A DNA stretch of 64,000 nucleotides, from the NCBI GenBank assembly GCA_964562525.1, contig CAZLTL010000010.1:15389-79388 (forward strand), in the 5' to 3' direction. This stretch comes from an uncultured bacterium (lineage in GTDB: Bacteria > Omnitrophota > Omnitrophia > Omnitrophales > Aquincolibacteriaceae). Both the position numbers and the translations under genes were made by a program. A model generated the notes under the pieces. That model was not told the DNA's origin and made no database searches. It saw nothing but the letters and a program-made list of their open reading frames with translations. Every line of letters starts with the position of its first letter. Position 1 is the first letter of the stretch. Shown in pieces: positions 5,689 to 40,847 of this stretch.

Positions 5689-6630
5689 GTGGAAAAAATC
5701 ATCCGTTTGTTTTCGAATCAGGAAGCGGTTTATCTTTACGGAAATTTGGACCAAAATTTAAAGCACGCGGAAAAGCAATATCATGTGACAGTTTCGGCGA
5801 AGAATGAACGCCTCAAGATTAACGGAGATGACGCTCAAGTTGAGCAAGCCTATGATTTTTTTATGGGGCTTTTGACGAAGTTCCGTAAAGGCGTGCCCGC
5901 CGTCAATCAACCTGAAGCTACGATTGCGCATAAGCAGGCGGAAGTCGCTGCTGCGGCAGGAGAACACGAGGCTATTTTCCATAAGGGGAAGCTGTTTGAG
6001 CCTAAAAGCAAAACGCAGCTAGCCTATTTAAAATCCATTCAAACGCATGATGTGGTGTTCGCAATCGGACCTGCCGGTACGGGTAAAACATATTTGGCTG
6101 TGGCGGCGGCGGTTCATGCCTTACGTAAACGAGAAGTCAAAAAAATCATTTTAGCGCGCCCTGCTGTGGAAGCCGGCGAAAGTCTCGGGTTTTTGCCGGG
6201 TGATTTGGAAGAGAAAGTGAATCCGTATCTTCGTCCGCTTTATGACGCGCTTTACGACATGATGGATGTGGATGAAGTCGCGAAATGCTTCGACCGCGAA
6301 ATGATTGAAATCGCGCCGCTCGCGTATATGCGCGGACGAACGCTCAACGGCGCGTTTATTATTTTGGACGAAGCGCAGAACTGTACCTACAGTCAGATGA
6401 AAATGTTTTTGACCCGTCTCGGGCAATCTTCCAAAATGGTTTTAACCGGCGACGTGACTCAAATCGATTTACCCCGCGGCCAGCTTTCCGGCCTTGTCGA
6501 AGCCAAAAAGGTTTTGACTGATGTGGAAGGGATTGAGTTTATTCAGATGGACGATAAGGATGTGGTGAGACATCCGTTGGTTCGCAGTATTATTAAGGCG
6601 TACGAGTCGCACGAAACCGCTCAGAGATAA
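5689..6630 (+). CDS. phoH: PhoH-family ATPase (YbeZ-like)
   Basis: Walker A GPAGTGKTYLAVA, ILDEAQN motif; conserved phoH-ybeY pairing with the next gene; GTG start with AAGGAG ribosome-binding site. Confidence 0.85.
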   Translation: MEKIIRLFSNQEAVYLYGNLDQNLKHAEKQYHVTVSAKNERLKINGDDAQVEQAYDFFMGLLTKFRKGVPAVNQPEATIAHKQAEVAAAAGEHEAIFHKGKLFEPKSKTQLAYLKSIQTHDVVFAIGPAGTGKTYLAVAAAVHALRKREVKKIILARPAVEAGESLGFLPGDLEEKVNPYLRPLYDALYDMMDVDEVAKCFDREMIEIAPLAYMRGRTLNGAFIILDEAQNCTYSQMKMFLTRLGQSSKMVLTGDVTQIDLPRGQLSGLVEAKKVLTDVEGIEFIQMDDKDVVRHPLVRSIIKAYESHETAQR

Positions 6631-6647
6631 TTCGCTGAAAACGGCTC

Positions 6648-6745
6648 GTCTGCGGCGTTACAAACTCGCAGCCTTCAGTCAATGTGCGTTTCACCGCACA
6701 CCTCCTTCGACTGCTCGTTTGTGCCTAGCATCCAAGCTGTTTTGA
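6648..6745 (+). repeat. ~90-bp intergenic repeat, family member (downstream of phoH)
   Basis: TCTGCGGCGTTACAAACTCGCAG...GTGCGTTTCACCGCACACCTCCTTCGACTGCTCGTTTGTGCCTAGCATCCAAGCTGTTTTGAGC aligns with 11656-11750 and 25093-25172. Confidence 0.5.
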
Positions 6746-6769
6746 GCGAATTGTGATAGATTCCAACCT

Positions 6770-11634: not shown

Positions 11635-11655
11635 CGAATGCTGAAAAAAATCACC

Positions 11656-11750
11656 CGCTGCGTTACAAGACAAACTTCCTTGTGCGCCGTAGGTTTCACT
11701 ACGGCTCCGCGGGCGTTTGCTTGTGCCTTGCGGCTGAGCTTTTTTGAGCA
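11656..11750 (+). repeat. ~90-bp intergenic repeat, family member (between nadX-like and uvrA)
   Basis: GCTGCGTTACAAGACAAAC...GGTTTCACTACGGCTCCGCGGGCGTTTGCTTGTGCCTTGCGGCTGAGCTTTTTTGAGC; same architecture, ending in a T-run. Confidence 0.5.
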
Positions 11751-11770
11751 TTCGCTGACTGAGGTTTAAG

Positions 11771-24167: not shown

Positions 24168-24689
24168 ATGGATATTAAGCAAATTCAATCTAAAATCCGA
24201 GACATTCCTGATTTTCCGAAGCCCGGAATTGTTTTTAAAGATATTACTCCCTTGCTGCAAGACTCACTCGCGTTTCATGCTTCCATTGAAAAAATTGCTG
24301 CGGCACTTGAACCTTACTCCGTGGATGCCATCGTCGGAATTGAATCGCGCGGGTTTATCTTTGGTCCTGCGGTCGCATTTCGCATGAAAAAGGGGTTTAT
24401 CCCTCTGCGCAAAAAAGGCAAACTTCCGTTCAAAACGGAACAAATTTCGTATGCATTGGAATATGGCGAGGCAACACTAGAGATTCATTCTGACGGCGTT
24501 TTAAAGGGTCAGAAGGTCGCGATTATCGATGATGTGCTTGCCACCGGCGGAACCGCGGCGGCGGCGCGCACACTTGTTGAAAGAATCGGCGGGCGGGTTG
24601 CCGCATTCGCATTCTTAGGGGAACTTGGCTTTCTCGATGGGCGGTCTAAGCTCATCGGTTATCCTTCCTTTTCTCTGCTTCAGTTTTAA
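24168..24689 (+). CDS. apt: adenine phosphoribosyltransferase
   Basis: DFPKPGIVFKDITPLL and VAIIDDVLATGGTA PRTase motifs, 173 aa. Confidence 0.9.
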   Translation: MDIKQIQSKIRDIPDFPKPGIVFKDITPLLQDSLAFHASIEKIAAALEPYSVDAIVGIESRGFIFGPAVAFRMKKGFIPLRKKGKLPFKTEQISYALEYGEATLEIHSDGVLKGQKVAIIDDVLATGGTAAAARTLVERIGGRVAAFAFLGELGFLDGRSKLIGYPSFSLLQF

Positions 24690-24708: not shown

Positions 24709-24782
24709 GTCCCCATAGCTCAAATGGATAGAGCATCTCCGTCCTAAGGAGAGGGTTGCATGTTCGACTCATGCTGGGGACA
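24709..24782 (+). tRNA. tRNA-Arg (anticodon CCT)
   Basis: Hand-folded cloverleaf: acceptor GTCCCCA/TGGGGAC, D-arm GCTC-AAATGGATA-GAGC, anticodon stem TCTCC/GGAGA with loop GTCCTAA, T-arm GCATG-TTCGACT-CATGC, discriminator A. Confidence 0.8.
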
Positions 24783-25060
24783 TTTTTCACTGAAAACCCA
24801 TCATCTACTGCGTTGTATCCGCTTTCGCTTGTGCGATGTATTTTGGTATACATCTCCGCGCTCATTTGCATACGCCTTGTATCTGATGGGTTTTGAGTGA
24901 AAACGGTTGTGAAATATGAATCGAAGGGATCTTCGCAATTTATTCCGCTGAGTGGAGGACGAAGCTGACTAAGGTCAGCTTTGGACAGAATGAAGACCAG
25001 GCGAAGCGGGCGGCCGACTTGAAGTGAATGCCGCGGCTAGCGGACGTGAACGGAAAGTGC

Positions 25061-25078
25061 CGACTCATGCTGGGGACA
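25061..25078 (+). repeat. 18-bp direct repeat of the tRNA-Arg 3' end (CGACTCATGCTGGGGACA), an att-site-like duplication
   Basis: Exact copy of positions 24765-24782, lying 278 bp downstream of the tRNA. Confidence 0.6.
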
Positions 25079-25092
25079 CTATTTTGTTTTTG

Positions 25093-25172
25093 CTCTGCGC
25101 CGCCGGCGCAACCGCACGTTTCACTACGCCTCCTCATGCGCTTGTTTAGGCCTAGCATCTAAGACCTTTTTT
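25093..25172 (+). repeat. intergenic repeat element (GCGCC hairpin module plus GTTTCAC...GCCTAGCATC...TTTTTTGA module)
   Basis: Shares the CTCTGCGCC-N3-GGCGCAACCG hairpin with 30249, 32221 and 39737, and the ~60-bp GTTTCAC...T-run module with 6648-6745 and 11656-11750. Confidence 0.55.
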
Positions 25173-25260: not shown

Positions 25261-27228
25261 ATGAAAAGATTATTCAGCCATTGCCGACTTCAGCTTTTGT
25301 CAGCTGGAGTGATTTGTTTTTTTGGTATATCTGCTTTGCACGCCCAAACGGCTTCGTCGGGAAGCGCTCAGATTGACCCTGATTGGGAAAAAATCCGGGA
25401 TGCCCAGGTTCAAATGCTTAAAAAAAAGGAACAGGAGCTTGACCGTCTCAAGGAAGAAATTTTAAGCCGCGCACAACCCCAGACTTCCAATTCGGCGGAT
25501 TTACTTCAGGCTGAACTAAAGCAAAAAGAGCAGGCATGGACGGAGCGTATTCAAAAATACGAAAATGAAATCAGTTTGCTGCGAGTTAAGGCTGAAGATC
25601 AAAAAAAAGAAATCGATTCTTTGCGTTCTAATTCCGGGAAATCAGCAGAAATCAATCCTGCTTTGGCGGCAGCACCCGCTCTTTCCGGTCCATCAGAAGC
25701 TGCTTTAAAAGAGCGGGAAATTCAGATTCGAGCTCAGGAAAAAACTTTAGAGTCTAAAGACCAGGAGTTGATTCGTGCGCGCGCAGAGTTTGAGAAACAG
25801 TTAGCGGAGTTCGACAAAAAAATTAAATCAGAAGAAGACCGGCTTGACGATGAACGGCGCGAAATCTTGAACGGAAGGAATGCCTTAGAAACGGAAAAGC
25901 GCGCTTTGTCTGATGAGCGTAATGCAGTTAGCGCTCAAGTACAAGGGCTTAAAGAGAGCCAGAAGAAATTTGAAGATTTGCAAAATAAAGAAAAGGCTTT
26001 CGGTGAGCGCGAAGCTGCGCTCGTTCTAAAAGAAAAAACAGTAAGTGATAAATTAATCGAAGCCGCTGACCGCGAAAAGCGGATTGCGGATTCGCAAAAG
26101 CAGCTGGTGGAAGAGCGCCGCAAATGGCAGGTTGAGCGTAATCAGCTTACGGCGGATTTGGAAAAGAGATTTGCCGAAGCGGATGCCCGTTTGGAAAAAG
26201 CAGATAGCATTGATTTAGAACGCGACCGCATCCGTGCCGGATATGAGAAGCAGCTTAAAGAGATGCGTGGCGAAACTCAATATGAGAAAGACAAATTAGC
26301 TCAAAGAGAACTGGAATGGAAAGAGAAGACAAGGGAATTTGCTCAAACGCAGAATGATCTTGAGAAGCAGATTGCGGATTTGAAGGCGCAGCTTTTAGAT
26401 TCCGGAAAAACAACGGAAAAGGAAGCTGTTTTGACCCGGCAAGTGGAGGAATTGAATCAGAAGCTATTTGCGGCTGAAAATCTCAAGAAAAGCGCTGAGG
26501 CGGAGTTGATGACCGTTAAATCAAAAGTAGCGGCTCAAGCGGATCAGAGTGGCGAAACCTCAAAACTTCAAACACAAATTCAAGAGTTGCGGGATCAGCA
26601 GATTGCGCGTGAAAAAGAACTGAAAACCGAAAAAGAAGCCTATGAAAAAACAATCGCGGATCTGCGCGGACGGCTTGCCGATCGTGAAAGCGGTTTTGAG
26701 TCGAAAGAGACGGAGTTAAGTCGCAAATTGGCAGACATCGAGCAGAAATTAGCGGAATCGGAAAACAAAAAAATGTCATTGGAATCCCAAGTCAGCGATT
26801 TAAAGAGCCGTCCAATCCAGACAACCGGCGCTGATGCCCGGGATGTTGCTGATGTCTCCGCGCTCAAAAAAGAAATCGCGGCGCTTCAAATTGAGAATGA
26901 AGATTGGCGCCGGAGTCGCAGGGAAGTTGAGCAAACTTGGAGCGAATTTGTGAATCGCGAAACTCAATATCAAATGGAAATCAAGGCGCTTGAAAATCAG
27001 CTTGCGGCAGCGAGCGCCTCATCCGGAGGGCGTGATTGGAGTTCGGAAGCGAAGCGTGTTGTGGAAGAACGCCGTGCATTAAGCGATGAAAAATCGAGAA
27101 TGTACCGCGAGGTGACGCAAGAGCGCCAAAAGCTGGAACAAGAGAAAGTTGAATTTTTGCGTCATCAGCGTGAATTTGACCAATACATTAAAAAAGAGCA
27201 AGCGCGGCTTGACCGCGCGCGGCAATAG
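25261..27228 (+). CDS. secreted coiled-coil protein (655 aa, E/K/R/Q-rich)
   Basis: N-terminal signal peptide (LSAGVICFFGISALHAQ), then ~600 aa of heptad-like charged repeats; no enzymatic motif. Confidence 0.5.
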   Translation: MKRLFSHCRLQLLSAGVICFFGISALHAQTASSGSAQIDPDWEKIRDAQVQMLKKKEQELDRLKEEILSRAQPQTSNSADLLQAELKQKEQAWTERIQKYENEISLLRVKAEDQKKEIDSLRSNSGKSAEINPALAAAPALSGPSEAALKEREIQIRAQEKTLESKDQELIRARAEFEKQLAEFDKKIKSEEDRLDDERREILNGRNALETEKRALSDERNAVSAQVQGLKESQKKFEDLQNKEKAFGEREAALVLKEKTVSDKLIEAADREKRIADSQKQLVEERRKWQVERNQLTADLEKRFAEADARLEKADSIDLERDRIRAGYEKQLKEMRGETQYEKDKLAQRELEWKEKTREFAQTQNDLEKQIADLKAQLLDSGKTTEKEAVLTRQVEELNQKLFAAENLKKSAEAELMTVKSKVAAQADQSGETSKLQTQIQELRDQQIAREKELKTEKEAYEKTIADLRGRLADRESGFESKETELSRKLADIEQKLAESENKKMSLESQVSDLKSRPIQTTGADARDVADVSALKKEIAALQIENEDWRRSRREVEQTWSEFVNRETQYQMEIKALENQLAAASASSGGRDWSSEAKRVVEERRALSDEKSRMYREVTQERQKLEQEKVEFLRHQREFDQYIKKEQARLDRARQ

Positions 27229-32195: not shown

Positions 32196-32220
32196 CATGT
32201 GTTCCTTCCTTTTTTTTAGC

Positions 32221-32245
32221 CTCTGCGCCATCGGCGCAACCGGCA
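32221..32245 (+). promoter_or_regulatory. conserved hairpin motif CTCTGCGCC-ATC-GGCGCAACCGGCA, 22 nt upstream of the nadK start
   Basis: Same motif family as 30249-30273; the flanks are conserved as well as the stem. Confidence 0.5.
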
Positions 32246-39723: not shown

Positions 39724-39736
39724 CGATTTCTTTCGG

Positions 39737-39760
39737 CTCTGCGCCTTTGGCGCAACCGCA
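39737..39760 (+). promoter_or_regulatory. conserved hairpin motif CTCTGCGCC-TTT-GGCGCAACCGCA immediately 3' of tRNA-Cys
   Basis: Fourth copy of the CTCTGCGCC-N-GGCGCAACCG family. Confidence 0.5.
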
Positions 39761-39770
39761 GTTTATGCCC

Positions 39771-39808
39771 GGGTGGCGAAATTGGCAGACGCAACGGACT
39801 TAAAAGCT
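39771..39808 (+). pseudogene. 5' half of a tRNA-Leu(UAA) (acceptor 5' strand, D-arm, 5' anticodon stem and loop) with no matching 3' half
   Basis: GCCCGGGTGGCGAAATTGGCAGACGCAACGGACTTAAAA matches the tRNA-Leu 5' half through the anticodon loop CTTAAAA. The following GCTGA cannot pair with ACGGA, and no 3' exon (..TCCGT..GGTTCGA..CCCGGGCA) occurs in the next 0.8 kb. Confidence 0.5.
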
Positions 39809-40552
39809 GATTTCAAGATTTTCGTAACTTCAATGTTTTGAACCTAATCCATTACCTGCGCTAGATTTAGACATGATATTTGATGATATCGTGTGATACC
39901 TAAAAACATCGATTTCTACTTGGTATAGTCACACCCTAGTCACACGGAAATTGATCAGAAACCTGCCTTTTAAATTCTCTGCTCATTACGCGATTATGAG
40001 TTTGTCTTGGGCTGGAAATTAACCAGTCATGGCTAAAATTTGACCAATCGATTAAAGGGCATATTACATCGCGTGCTCTTAGGGCTTTGTTAGATGGGTC
40101 TATTATGCTTTTAAATGGCCCAAGGCAAACGAGGGGAATGTTCCCCAGCAGGCCAACCCATTATTGACTCACATGTGCCCCTTAGGAGCTTTTTTCGGGC
40201 CTTTTTGAGATTTTAGCCGAATTGAGGGCGGCTGTGCTCTTCTACCTTATTGGATTAGGCGCCCAAAGCTGTTATTTATGATTGCCTGTCTTTAGCGTTC
40301 TGACTAAACGGAGATTTTTAGGCTGTCGTACCGGGAGGAAACGATTTCGATGAATTTAGTTTTGGTGCTGGGAGGGCGTTGGCTCGCTTTGATGAACTCG
40401 AAGCAATAGCTTTATTGATACCAGGCATTATTAATAAATTGAGCTGGGGCATCAAGTCTTTGCAGAGGCTTGAAGTTTTAAGGTGTGAATCAGCATTACC
40501 CTTGGTTTAAAATGGTGATAGTCTTAAAAAAAGAGGTTGAAATGTCTCAAAA

Positions 40553-40572
40553 TTAAGATAAGCTTATCTTAA
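40553..40572. promoter_or_regulatory. 20-bp perfect palindrome TTAAGATAAGCTTATCTTAA (predicted Rrf2/NsrR-type operator), 20 bp upstream of the truncated Rrf2 gene
   Basis: Identical 20-mer at 56972-56991; same GATAAGCTTATC core at 58253-58270 and 58775-58794, each 15-45 bp upstream of a start codon. Confidence 0.6.
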
Positions 40573-40592
40573 TTAGGGCTGAGGGAGGCTAT

Positions 40593-40847
40593 GTGCTATA
40601 TTCGAAAACTTGTGAGTATGCAATTCGGGCATTGGCCTATATTGCGTCAAAAGACGATGCTTTAACTACAGCCACTGTTGAAGTGAAGAAAGCCACGGTG
40701 ATACCCGGACCTTATTTATCGAAAGTGTTTGGGGTTCTGGTTAGAAAGACAATTTTGAAAGCAAAGCAAGGGCCGGGGAGCAGCTTTTCTTTTGCACGAG
40801 ATTTCAAAGAAATCTCACTTTTAAATCAAAAAAAGAAAAAAACATGA
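40593..40847 (+). CDS. Rrf2-family transcriptional regulator, truncated paralog (N-terminal wHTH only, Cys ligands absent)
   Basis: 84 aa. First ~70 aa are near-identical to the N-terminus of the 155-aa Rrf2 protein at 58288 (MLYSKTCEYAIRALAYIAS...GPYLSKVFGVLVRK). It ends in KKKKT within A7 tracts before the three-Cys segment; GTG start; stop overlaps the next gene (ATGA). Confidence 0.6.
   Translation: MLYSKTCEYAIRALAYIASKDDALTTATVEVKKATVIPGPYLSKVFGVLVRKTILKAKQGPGSSFSFARDFKEISLLNQKKKKT

Follow-up and report, generated by a model that had tools for sequence, protein, structure and literature searches.

The tRNA-Arg(CCT) locus and its duplicated 3' end

We analysed a 64-kb stretch of DNA from an uncultured bacterium of the phylum Omnitrophota (the whole stretch is called the window below), and focused on the gene for tRNA-Arg(CCU), the decoder of rare AGG codons, together with the segment that directly follows it (Table 1). 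The gene is preceded by glyS, ppdK, a sigma-70 factor gene and apt (24168–24689), and followed by genes for a 655-aa protein with no Pfam domain, 5-formyltetrahydrofolate (5-FTHF) cyclo-ligase, xseA, xseB and ispA.

The last 18 nt of the tRNA (CGACTCATGCTGGGGACA) occur exactly twice in the window, once as the tRNA 3' end (copy 1) and once more on the same strand (copy 2), with an interval of 278 bp (24783–25060) between them; 0 matches were obtained by chance in 100 dinucleotide shuffles. This arrangement, which an initial annotation of the DNA had reported together with an inverted repeat and a perfect 7-bp hairpin inside the interval, was confirmed by ARAGORN, Rfam and an exact-match search. 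The hairpin was present in the sequence as described, and the inverted repeat proved longer than originally given (25-nt arms at 24784–24808 and 24879–24903, 88% complementary). The 18-nt duplication was also found in independent assemblies of related genomes, and is therefore not an assembly artefact. The GC content of the insert (0.45–0.52, compared with ~0.47 for the window) revealed no anomaly in base composition. RNA folding exceeded that of shuffled sequences for both the insert (z = −3.4) and the whole precursor, from the tRNA to copy 2 (z = −4.6).

Table 1 Features of the tRNA-Arg(CCT) locus and of related repeats in the window.
Feature	Position	Strand	Basis or remark
tRNA-Arg(CCT) gene	24709–24782	+	ARAGORN; Rfam tRNA, 60 bits; CCA not encoded
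Repeat copy 1: last 18 nt of the tRNA, from T-loop C56 to the discriminator base	24765–24782	+	
Hairpin A, ~120 nt: 21-pair outer stem, internal loops, inner hairpin	24784–24904	+	
Domain 2, locus-specific ~170-nt RNA, three-way junction	24906–25078	+	RNAalifold, 47 pairs, six helices
X, 'anti-T-loop' strand ATGAATCGAA, 5' strand of H1	24916–24925	+	Reverse complement of tRNA 54–63
H1, closing helix	24913–24922 / 25062–25071		
H2	24930–24936 / 25001–25007		
H3	24948–24953 / 24990–24995		
H4	24957–24969 / 24974–24986		
Tip of H4, 7-bp hairpin AGCTGAC-TAAG-GTCAGCT	24963–24980	+	Sequence
H5	25012–25020 / 25055–25061		
H6	25024–25034 / 25040–25051		
Repeat copy 2: duplicated tRNA 3' end, forming the 3' strand of H1 and an unpaired tail GCUGGGGACA	25061–25078	+	Exact repeat
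U-rich tract and short dispersed hairpin h (GCTCTGCGCC-NNN-GGCGCAACCGCA, 25092–25116)	25079–25116	+	Pattern search
Truncated hairpin A copy (3' half), in native downstream flank common to 'empty' L084	25114–25180	+	nhmmer model positions 57–121, E = 1.7e-12
Full hairpin A family copy, between phoH-like gene and next open reading frame	6630–6751	+	nhmmer, 76 bits, E = 7e-23
Full hairpin A family copy, between two co-directional genes	11639–11751	+	nhmmer, 91 bits, E = 2e-27

Conserved secondary structure of the segment

Through one genome scan, one metagenome scan and protein-based look-ups, we collected 14 distinct versions of the apt/tRNA-Arg(CCT) locus (given L numbers below). Most relatives came from the protein look-ups, while searching metagenomes with the last 46 nt of the tRNA gave only 2 loci and the genome scan with apt gave 1 close relative; the closest named genome by apt is Candidatus Omnitrophica bacterium UBA2337 (90% identity).

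Comparison of these loci revealed two structured parts between the tRNA and the end of copy 2, hairpin A and domain 2. In an alignment of five sequences, 94% of the cells at the predicted pairs of domain 2 were paired and 17 of the 47 pairs showed double changes, whereas slid partners gave only 31–44% paired cells and 0 of 500 shuffles matched the observed value. With eight lineages, in an alignment (A7) that was fitted with a covariance model (CM) and leans towards structure, 94% of the cells were again paired and compensatory double changes were found at 21 of the 47 pairs. The 7-bp tip of H4 illustrates this covariation, reading AGCTGAC/GTCAGCT, ACATGAC/GTCATGT or AGCCGAC/GTCGGGT in different lineages. 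The covariance model (R1) scored 181.7 bits on the window and 62–197 bits in 7 other lineages. Similarly, RNAalifold predicted 42 pairs for hairpin A from six lineages, 21 of which showed compensatory double changes; 89% of the cells were paired, compared with 36–51% for slid partners, and 0 of 500 shuffles reached the observed value. Both parts thus show the compensatory changes beyond controls that are expected of a generic structured non-coding RNA.

No match other than to the tRNA was found in Rfam 15 (including 6S, transfer-messenger RNA (tmRNA), RNase P, Y RNA, riboswitches and ribozymes) at E ≤ 1 for the window region and E ≤ 5 for five related loci. The initial annotation had suggested that further copies of the 278-bp sequence be sought: domain 2 has no second copy in the window or in the collected loci, and only the hairpin A part is multicopy. 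The unit contains no conserved open reading frame (ORF), with 2–8 stops in every frame in every lineage. We also considered, and rejected, several other identities for the segment. Minus-strand ORFs that gene callers place over domain 2 in some loci were not accepted as a small protein, since none is conserved and each frame carries the stops mentioned above. ARAGORN, with or without intron mode, found no tmRNA, permuted tmRNA or intron-containing tRNA, and the region 5' of copy 2 showed neither similarity to a tRNA body nor a cloverleaf that would indicate a pseudo-tRNA origin.

Co-variation of X, copy 2 and the tRNA

In the closing helix H1 of domain 2, X is paired with copy 2 over the first eight bases of the latter, and X is itself the reverse complement of tRNA positions 54–63 (TTCGACTCAT), with 1 mismatch in the window. 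We therefore have three strands that can be compared across lineages. The variable T-loop section reads CGACT in the tRNA of the window clade, AGTCG in X and CGACT in copy 2; in L093 and L097 the corresponding strands are CAAGT, ACTTG and CAAGT, and in L101 they are CGATT, AATCG and CGATT. At the variable T-loop position, the H1 pair accordingly occurs as CG, GC and AU types. Copy 2 follows each lineage's own tRNA in the acceptor part as well, including the change from GGGGAC to GGGGGC in L101, where the acceptor stem is GCCCCCA/TGGGGGC and copy 2 mirrors the change with an 18/18 match.

Identity between direct copies can also arise without selection, and gene conversion between copy 1 and copy 2 is demonstrated by L083, in which identity has spread to 66 bp. 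We therefore weighed the explanation that the whole segment is a functionless by-product, i.e., that the 3' region of the tRNA was duplicated in tandem long ago, was filled out with dispersed repeats and has remained similar to the tRNA only through gene conversion. Such an origin would fit the growth of the L083 repeat, in which gene conversion or unequal exchange is clearly at work, and the observations that hairpin A and hairpin h are dispersed repeats, that a truncated hairpin A copy follows copy 2 just as hairpin A follows copy 1, and that the unit has repeatedly been lost. However, six helices with compensatory changes have been kept at a divergence like that of host genes, with apt proteins only 60–77% identical, and gene conversion between direct copies is unable to account for an inverted 10-nt X that co-varies as well; this co-variation points to selection for base pairing. 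We consider a neutral by-product very improbable.

Distribution, inheritance and loss of the unit

The apt-linked loci share one architecture: the tRNA, hairpin A (not in every case), X, the helices, a ..GC junction with the copy of the tRNA 3' end, and a U-run. In all lineages copy 2 is preceded by ..GC (junction ..GC|C) and followed by a U-rich tract. This architecture was present in the window, L083, L086/L087, L093, L097 and L101/L102, partially in L095 and in reduced form in L100, and in L081 the contig stops within the unit. L083 is occupied as in the window, but with a direct repeat of 66 bp; in L086/L087, L093 and L097 copy 2 lies 277–302 bp past copy 1. L095 carries the unit with an internal deletion. 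The most distant bearers, L101/L102 (apt 60–62% identical to that of the window), have a compact unit of ~125 nt with a perfect 18/18 copy of their own, differing tRNA 3' end, and L100 is similarly distant (apt 60% identity). The tRNA itself is identical to that of the window at 74 of 74 positions in L001, L081 and L083–L086.

Other loci carry less or nothing of the unit. L084 differs from the window by the lack of exactly one repeat unit, so that the tRNA is joined directly to the sequence that follows copy 2 in the window, and its flank can be aligned with the window up to the downstream gene. L092 and L085 are also without the unit, and L001/L082 and L088–L091 retain the tRNA and hairpin A (plus X in L001), with the rest gone.

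We then placed these states on trees built for apt and for the fast-evolving 655-aa neighbour. Unit-bearing genomes occurred on every major branch of both trees, outgroups included, and L084 was nested inside the group of the window and L083, among unit bearers. Nucleotide identity to the window was 73% for domain 2 and 75% for apt in L086, 68% and 70% in L093, 71% and 69% in L097, and 63% and 58% in L101; domain 2 thus tracks apt, which indicates vertical inheritance. Because the unit lies at the same locus in all deep lineages, and because of its position in the trees, the 'empty' state of L084 is a secondary loss, which would most simply have occurred by recombination between direct repeats such as the 66-bp repeat of its relative L083. 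The constant ..GC|C junction, the distribution and the host-like divergence together argue that the duplication arose once, before the clade diversified, and has been inherited vertically since. The original event may well have been an ancient one of the type produced by an integrase that targets the T-loop.

The module as a whole also changes orientation. It is inverted relative to apt and the downstream gene in L001/L082, L088–L091, L081, L085 and L101/L102, and has the opposite orientation in the window, L083, L084, L086, L092, L093, L095, L097 and L100. Even close relatives differ (L086 plus, L081 minus, with 655-aa proteins 81% identical), and the two trees require at least three independent inversions. 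The orientation of hairpin A and domain 2 relative to the tRNA is constant, only the whole module being inverted. Two mechanisms were rejected: inversion of the shufflon kind involving the tRNA core, X and copy 2, since hairpin A and domain 2 never flip separately, and seamless inversion through the 7-bp acceptor-strand inverted repeat, whose prediction mismatches the flanks of L081 and L086.

Individual loci showed further irregularities around the tRNA. In L085 (1217–1345), a 10-N scaffold gap lies between two copies of the tRNA 5' end (gagctataggggc and gagctatggggac), and the acceptor stem of the called tRNA is mismatched. A repeat, or mixed orientations in the population, may have made the assembly ambiguous here. 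In L100 (3680–3765), a direct (GCCCCCATAGCT) and an inverted (GCTATGGGG) copy of the tRNA 5' end lie upstream of tRNA-Arg(CCT), whose T-stem differs (AGAGG/CCTCT), and the downstream copy of the 3' end retains the clade-typical CATGC. In L101/L102 (3961–6452), genes for a Fic/RhuM-domain protein and then RmuC stand beside the tRNA module in place of the 655-aa protein, and the downstream synteny is replaced by typical accessory genes.

Mobile-element explanations

The initial annotation had taken the locus for the signature of a tRNA-targeting integrative element, either a decayed island with a tiny cargo or a small non-autonomous element or small RNA (sRNA) mobilised in trans. Islands in tRNA genes (tDNAs) are recognised by an intact tDNA and a displaced 3' fragment downstream in the same orientation (Islander, PMC4383910), and a T-loop sublocation of tyrosine integrases is reported by Williams 2002, as cited in PMC4383910. 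Cis-mobilizable elements (CIMEs) are remnants derived from integrative and conjugative elements (ICEs) or integrative and mobilizable elements (IMEs), flanked by attachment (att) sites, that keep attL and attR after losing the integration genes (PMC5704250).

The segment could accordingly be an integrase-less, att-flanked miniature element, CIME-like or non-autonomous and mobilised in trans, with the structured DNA as its arms or cargo; its two 18-bp cores would be recombined by a tyrosine integrase encoded elsewhere. As in tDNA islands and prophages, an intact tRNA gene is followed by a displaced 3' end in the same orientation, identical from the T-loop to the tRNA end, and an exactly 'empty' relative exists: L084 shows a presence/absence polymorphism with precise boundaries. 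The multiple losses fit dispensability, and the repeated inversions of the module suggest recombination activity at tRNA-Arg(CCT). As in CIMEs, att-like direct repeats lie at a tRNA 3' end without an integrase, and excision in trans or accretion is possible in principle. The retention of attL and attR with loss of genes, however, is a formal match only.

We nevertheless regard such an element as unlikely. Pfam scans found no integrase, recombinase or transposase among the 29 window ORFs, all of which are housekeeping genes, and the 21-kb gene lists for L084 and L086 contained no integrase either; the initial annotation had advised looking for one elsewhere. The displaced 3' fragment of the Islander scheme is thus present, and the tyrosine integrase inside the interval is not. 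No copy of the unit was found at another site. Three exact-pattern scans for the 18-mers or the core of domain 2 gave 0 viral hits, with plasmid and ICE collections not searched, so that no decay from an ICE, IME or prophage could be recognised within the viral contigs covered. A phage attP or other viral origin was rejected as well: the 13 matches of a fourth scan are chance hits in GC-rich coding DNA, which read as AKRAAD codons, score ≤6.8 bits with the covariance model and have no tRNA nearby.

Furthermore, foreign origin and sporadic presence are contradicted by the occurrence of the unit in all deep lineages, its host-tracking divergence, the nested position of L084 and the native GC content. 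A comparison of occupied and empty tRNA loci, as the initial annotation had proposed, did reveal an empty locus in L084, but the occupation of every major lineage makes that state derived. Relatives thus carry the sequence as conserved intergenic DNA, the outcome named by the initial annotation as speaking against its own interpretation. The segment, at 278 bp, is far below the known sizes of islands and of CIMEs, which are kilobases long with recognisable remnants, and it contains no genes and no homology to mobile elements or phages. A decaying remnant would not be expected to keep 47 covarying pairs, or an X complementary to the tRNA core.

We therefore do not file the module as an island or a CIME. 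The att geometry and the exact empty site of the proposed signature stand, against deep vertical presence, the missing integrase and a covarying RNA interval. The decayed island is largely unsupported, since its presumed cargo is a covarying RNA structure that uses copy 2 as a helix strand, and of the second alternative, the sRNA comes near to what the evidence favours, while the non-autonomous element does not.

A probable conserved non-coding module 3' of tRNA-Arg(CCU)

Taken together, we consider it probable that a single lineage of Omnitrophota has conserved this segment, by vertical inheritance, as a non-coding module 3' of tRNA-Arg(CCU) whose repeat serves as a functional RNA strand. Such a module would combine a copy of the dispersed ~120-nt hairpin A with the unique ~170-nt three-way-junction domain 2, whose closing helix would be formed by X and the second copy of the last 18 nt of the tRNA. 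The 18-bp direct repeat would then be the strand of a functional RNA helix rather than a leftover att site, and copy 2 would be kept identical to the tRNA by gene conversion together with selection, as X must pair with that sequence. As a by-product, the direct repeat would make the unit deletable through recombination, giving rise to occasional 'empty' relatives such as L084. Co-transcription of the module with the tRNA is most likely, given that the two invariably share an orientation, even where the whole block is inverted. Most likely, the module would act in cis on the fate of the tRNA precursor.

Several observations weigh against this interpretation. The repeat has a sharp edge in the T-loop and reaches the exact tRNA end, which is the expected trace of a T-loop-targeting tyrosine integrase, and several losses of the unit (L084, L092, L085, L001/L088) show it to be dispensable, like selfish or accessory DNA. 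Hairpin A and hairpin h are dispersed repeats, so that the insert is partly repeat DNA rather than a dedicated RNA, and single disruptive changes occur in copy 2 of L093, L097 and L086. Only eight lineages were available and these are mutually related, in addition to the lean of alignment A7 towards structure, and the argument for transcription and co-transcription is drawn from orientation only.

An alternative fold and a possible switch

We folded the whole precursor and found that the minimum free energy (MFE) structure of the window, as well as the RNAalifold consensus of five precursors, adopts an alternative arrangement (conformation II), in which the distal copy is the partner of the 5' strands of the tRNA acceptor stem and T-stem, and X forms 10 bp with the true T-loop and T-stem 3' strand. 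Conformation II includes U54-U55:AA, a pairing available only from the true tRNA. In conformation I, the tRNA folds with its proximal 3' half and X pairs with copy 2 in H1. Constrained folds gave differences (II minus I, in kcal/mol) of −4.3 for the window, −0.8 for L083, +0.8 for L093, −5.0 for L097 and −3.5 for L101, with both conformations within ~5 kcal/mol in all five lineages; L086 was left out, as a 1-nt deletion in its copy 2 shifts the register of the constraint.

A more specific version of the conserved module would thus be an RNA switch that acts in cis on the maturation of tRNA-Arg(CCU), and would represent a class of device not described before. In conformation I, X would be parked on the distal copy and normal 3' processing would free the tRNA, whereas in conformation II X would invade the true T-arm, the distal copy would close the acceptor stem and T-stem, and the tRNA would be locked in a ~370-nt RNA. 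The sensor that biases this choice, e.g., by binding a ligand or protein, would be domain 2, which is flanked by X and the distal copy.

Besides the agreement of the window MFE and the five-precursor consensus on conformation II, a switch would account for the invariant AA at the end of X, pairable only with U54-U55 of the true tRNA, and for the fact that copy 2 follows the tRNA in its T-loop part as well as in the 3' strands of the T-stem and of the acceptor stem. X is extended to 17 nt of complementarity with the tRNA 3' half in L081, and remains intact at 10/10 in L001 though copy 2 is gone there; the anatomy is riboswitch-like, in that a switching helix closes the domain and the junction nucleotides are conserved. 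However, identical copies trivially give near-isoenergetic alternatives, which covariation cannot tell apart, and the energy model leaves out tRNA tertiary contacts, modifications and the order of transcription, in which the tRNA is made and folded first. Disruptive changes are found in the copy 2 tail of L093 and L086, several lineages can dispense with the unit, and no ligand, protein or condition is known. We hence put the switch forward as a tentative and rather doubtful proposal.

Dispersed repeat families

The inverted repeat of the initial annotation is the outer stem of hairpin A, one member of a dispersed structured repeat family. Besides the copies in the window (Table 1), further ones were found in the sigma–apt spacer of L093 (2708–2821), in L094 and in L097 (3870–3980). 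All family copies lie in intercistronic spacers and are co-oriented with the flanking genes, and they share the core TCATCTGCnGCGTTGCAA...GCGCCTTGCATCTGA with covarying outer stems. Occupancy varies, the sigma–apt spacer being filled in L093 and L097 and measuring only 14 bp in the window. Hairpin A thus has multiple homologous intergenic copies in the same genome, as a dispersed palindromic repeat family does. The other copies had no Rfam match. The nearby 5-FTHF cyclo-ligase gene raised the idea that hairpin A might be 6S-like, which was rejected, given the lack of Rfam support and the dispersed nature of the repeat.

Both hairpin A and hairpin h resemble repeats of the enterobacterial repetitive intergenic consensus (ERIC), repetitive extragenic palindromic (REP) and bacterial interspersed mosaic element (BIME) types: they are multicopy, gene-oriented, imperfect palindromes of intercistronic spacers, and differ in presence between relatives, as hairpin A does in the sigma–apt spacer. 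In contrast to such repeats, the hairpin A copies are only ~60% identical within the genome and have compensatory outer-stem changes around a conserved core. This suggests that they are old, structure-selected elements rather than recently transposed miniature inverted-repeat transposable elements; no target-site duplication was seen at the copies.

Hairpin h occurs three times in the window (25092–25116, 32220–32244 and 39736–39760), where the pattern search gave an expectation of 0. The U-run and h stand directly 3' of the tRNA in L083, L084, L086 and L081; h is also present in L093 and L097, and its stem covaries to GGGC/GCCC in L093. It usually follows a T-rich run, is found 3' of tRNA-Cys, of the tRNA-Arg end copies and of the dxs gene, and resembles a REP element or an unusual terminator.

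tRNA-Cys and its h copy are directly followed by a tRNA-Leu(TAA) gene fragment (39762–39800, GCCCGGGTGGCGAAATTGGCAGACGCAACGGACTTAAAA) that comprises the 5' half, breaks off in the anticodon loop and precedes ~1 kb (39800–40840) without an ORF of ≥150 aa. Neither a 3' half nor an intron was found in the window by ARAGORN in intron mode, Rfam (including the group I intron) or a search for the 3' half. To the right lie crp, nrdG, nrdD and genes for radical-SAM enzymes, with no integrase among them.

Comparison with other RNAs and significance

We compared the conserved module with known RNA systems. Like the 3' external transcribed spacer RNAs of enterobacterial tRNA operons (PMC8166272), it would be a non-coding RNA immediately 3' of a tRNA in the same orientation, which tRNA 3' processing would release here too; those sRNAs, however, are short, largely unstructured sponges, whereas the module spans ~300 nt and is highly structured, with the tRNA 3' half in duplicate and a strand complementary to the T-loop. 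Y RNAs such as YrlA (PMC4201824) and the tRNA-like domain of tmRNA likewise involve larger non-coding RNAs with a tRNA-derived 3' end (T-stem 3' strand, acceptor 3' strand and discriminator). The module differs in having no complete T-arm or acceptor stem, copy 2 lacking a 5' T-stem or acceptor partner in the unit, and in carrying an exact copy of the 3' half of the neighbouring tRNA rather than a generic fold. No rsr/Ro gene lies nearby, where the neighbours are apt, the sigma-70 factor, the 655-aa protein and 5-FTHF cyclo-ligase, and neither ARAGORN (for tmRNA) nor Rfam gave a match. The likeness to riboswitch-type elements lies in a conserved multi-helix domain closed by X and copy 2, with an alternative partner for X, the true T-arm, in the same transcript. 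In contrast to riboswitches, that partner is the tRNA rather than a terminator or ribosome-binding site, no ligand is known, and the element stands 3' of the RNA that it would regulate, not 5' of an mRNA.

If the module is a real RNA, it represents a new structured family, absent from Rfam 15, from a poorly studied and largely uncultured phylum. Its design would be unusual, combining an exact, co-evolving copy of the neighbouring tRNA 3' half with a strand complementary to the T-loop, and it would be a rare case of a textbook island signature that is a functional RNA helix, which calls for caution in island-finding pipelines. The switch, if true, would be a new way of regulating tRNA supply, through the release of tRNA-Arg(CCU) from its precursor. 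Even on a conservative reading, the known genome architecture of Omnitrophota gains two dispersed structured repeat families (hairpin A and h) as well as a tRNA module that has been inverted repeatedly.

Further observations at the locus

An Rfam run over the whole window at the gathering threshold returned tRNA-Cys only and missed tRNA-Arg, whereas the tRNA-Arg region searched alone scored 60 bits against a gathering score of 29; this discrepancy is apparently a filter effect of the large search. The 655-aa neighbour (25261–27228) has a signal-peptide-like N-terminus and long charged repeats, in addition to the lack of a Pfam domain mentioned above. It evolves very fast, with 83–85% identity in the closest relatives and 32–57% where apt is 73–93% identical.

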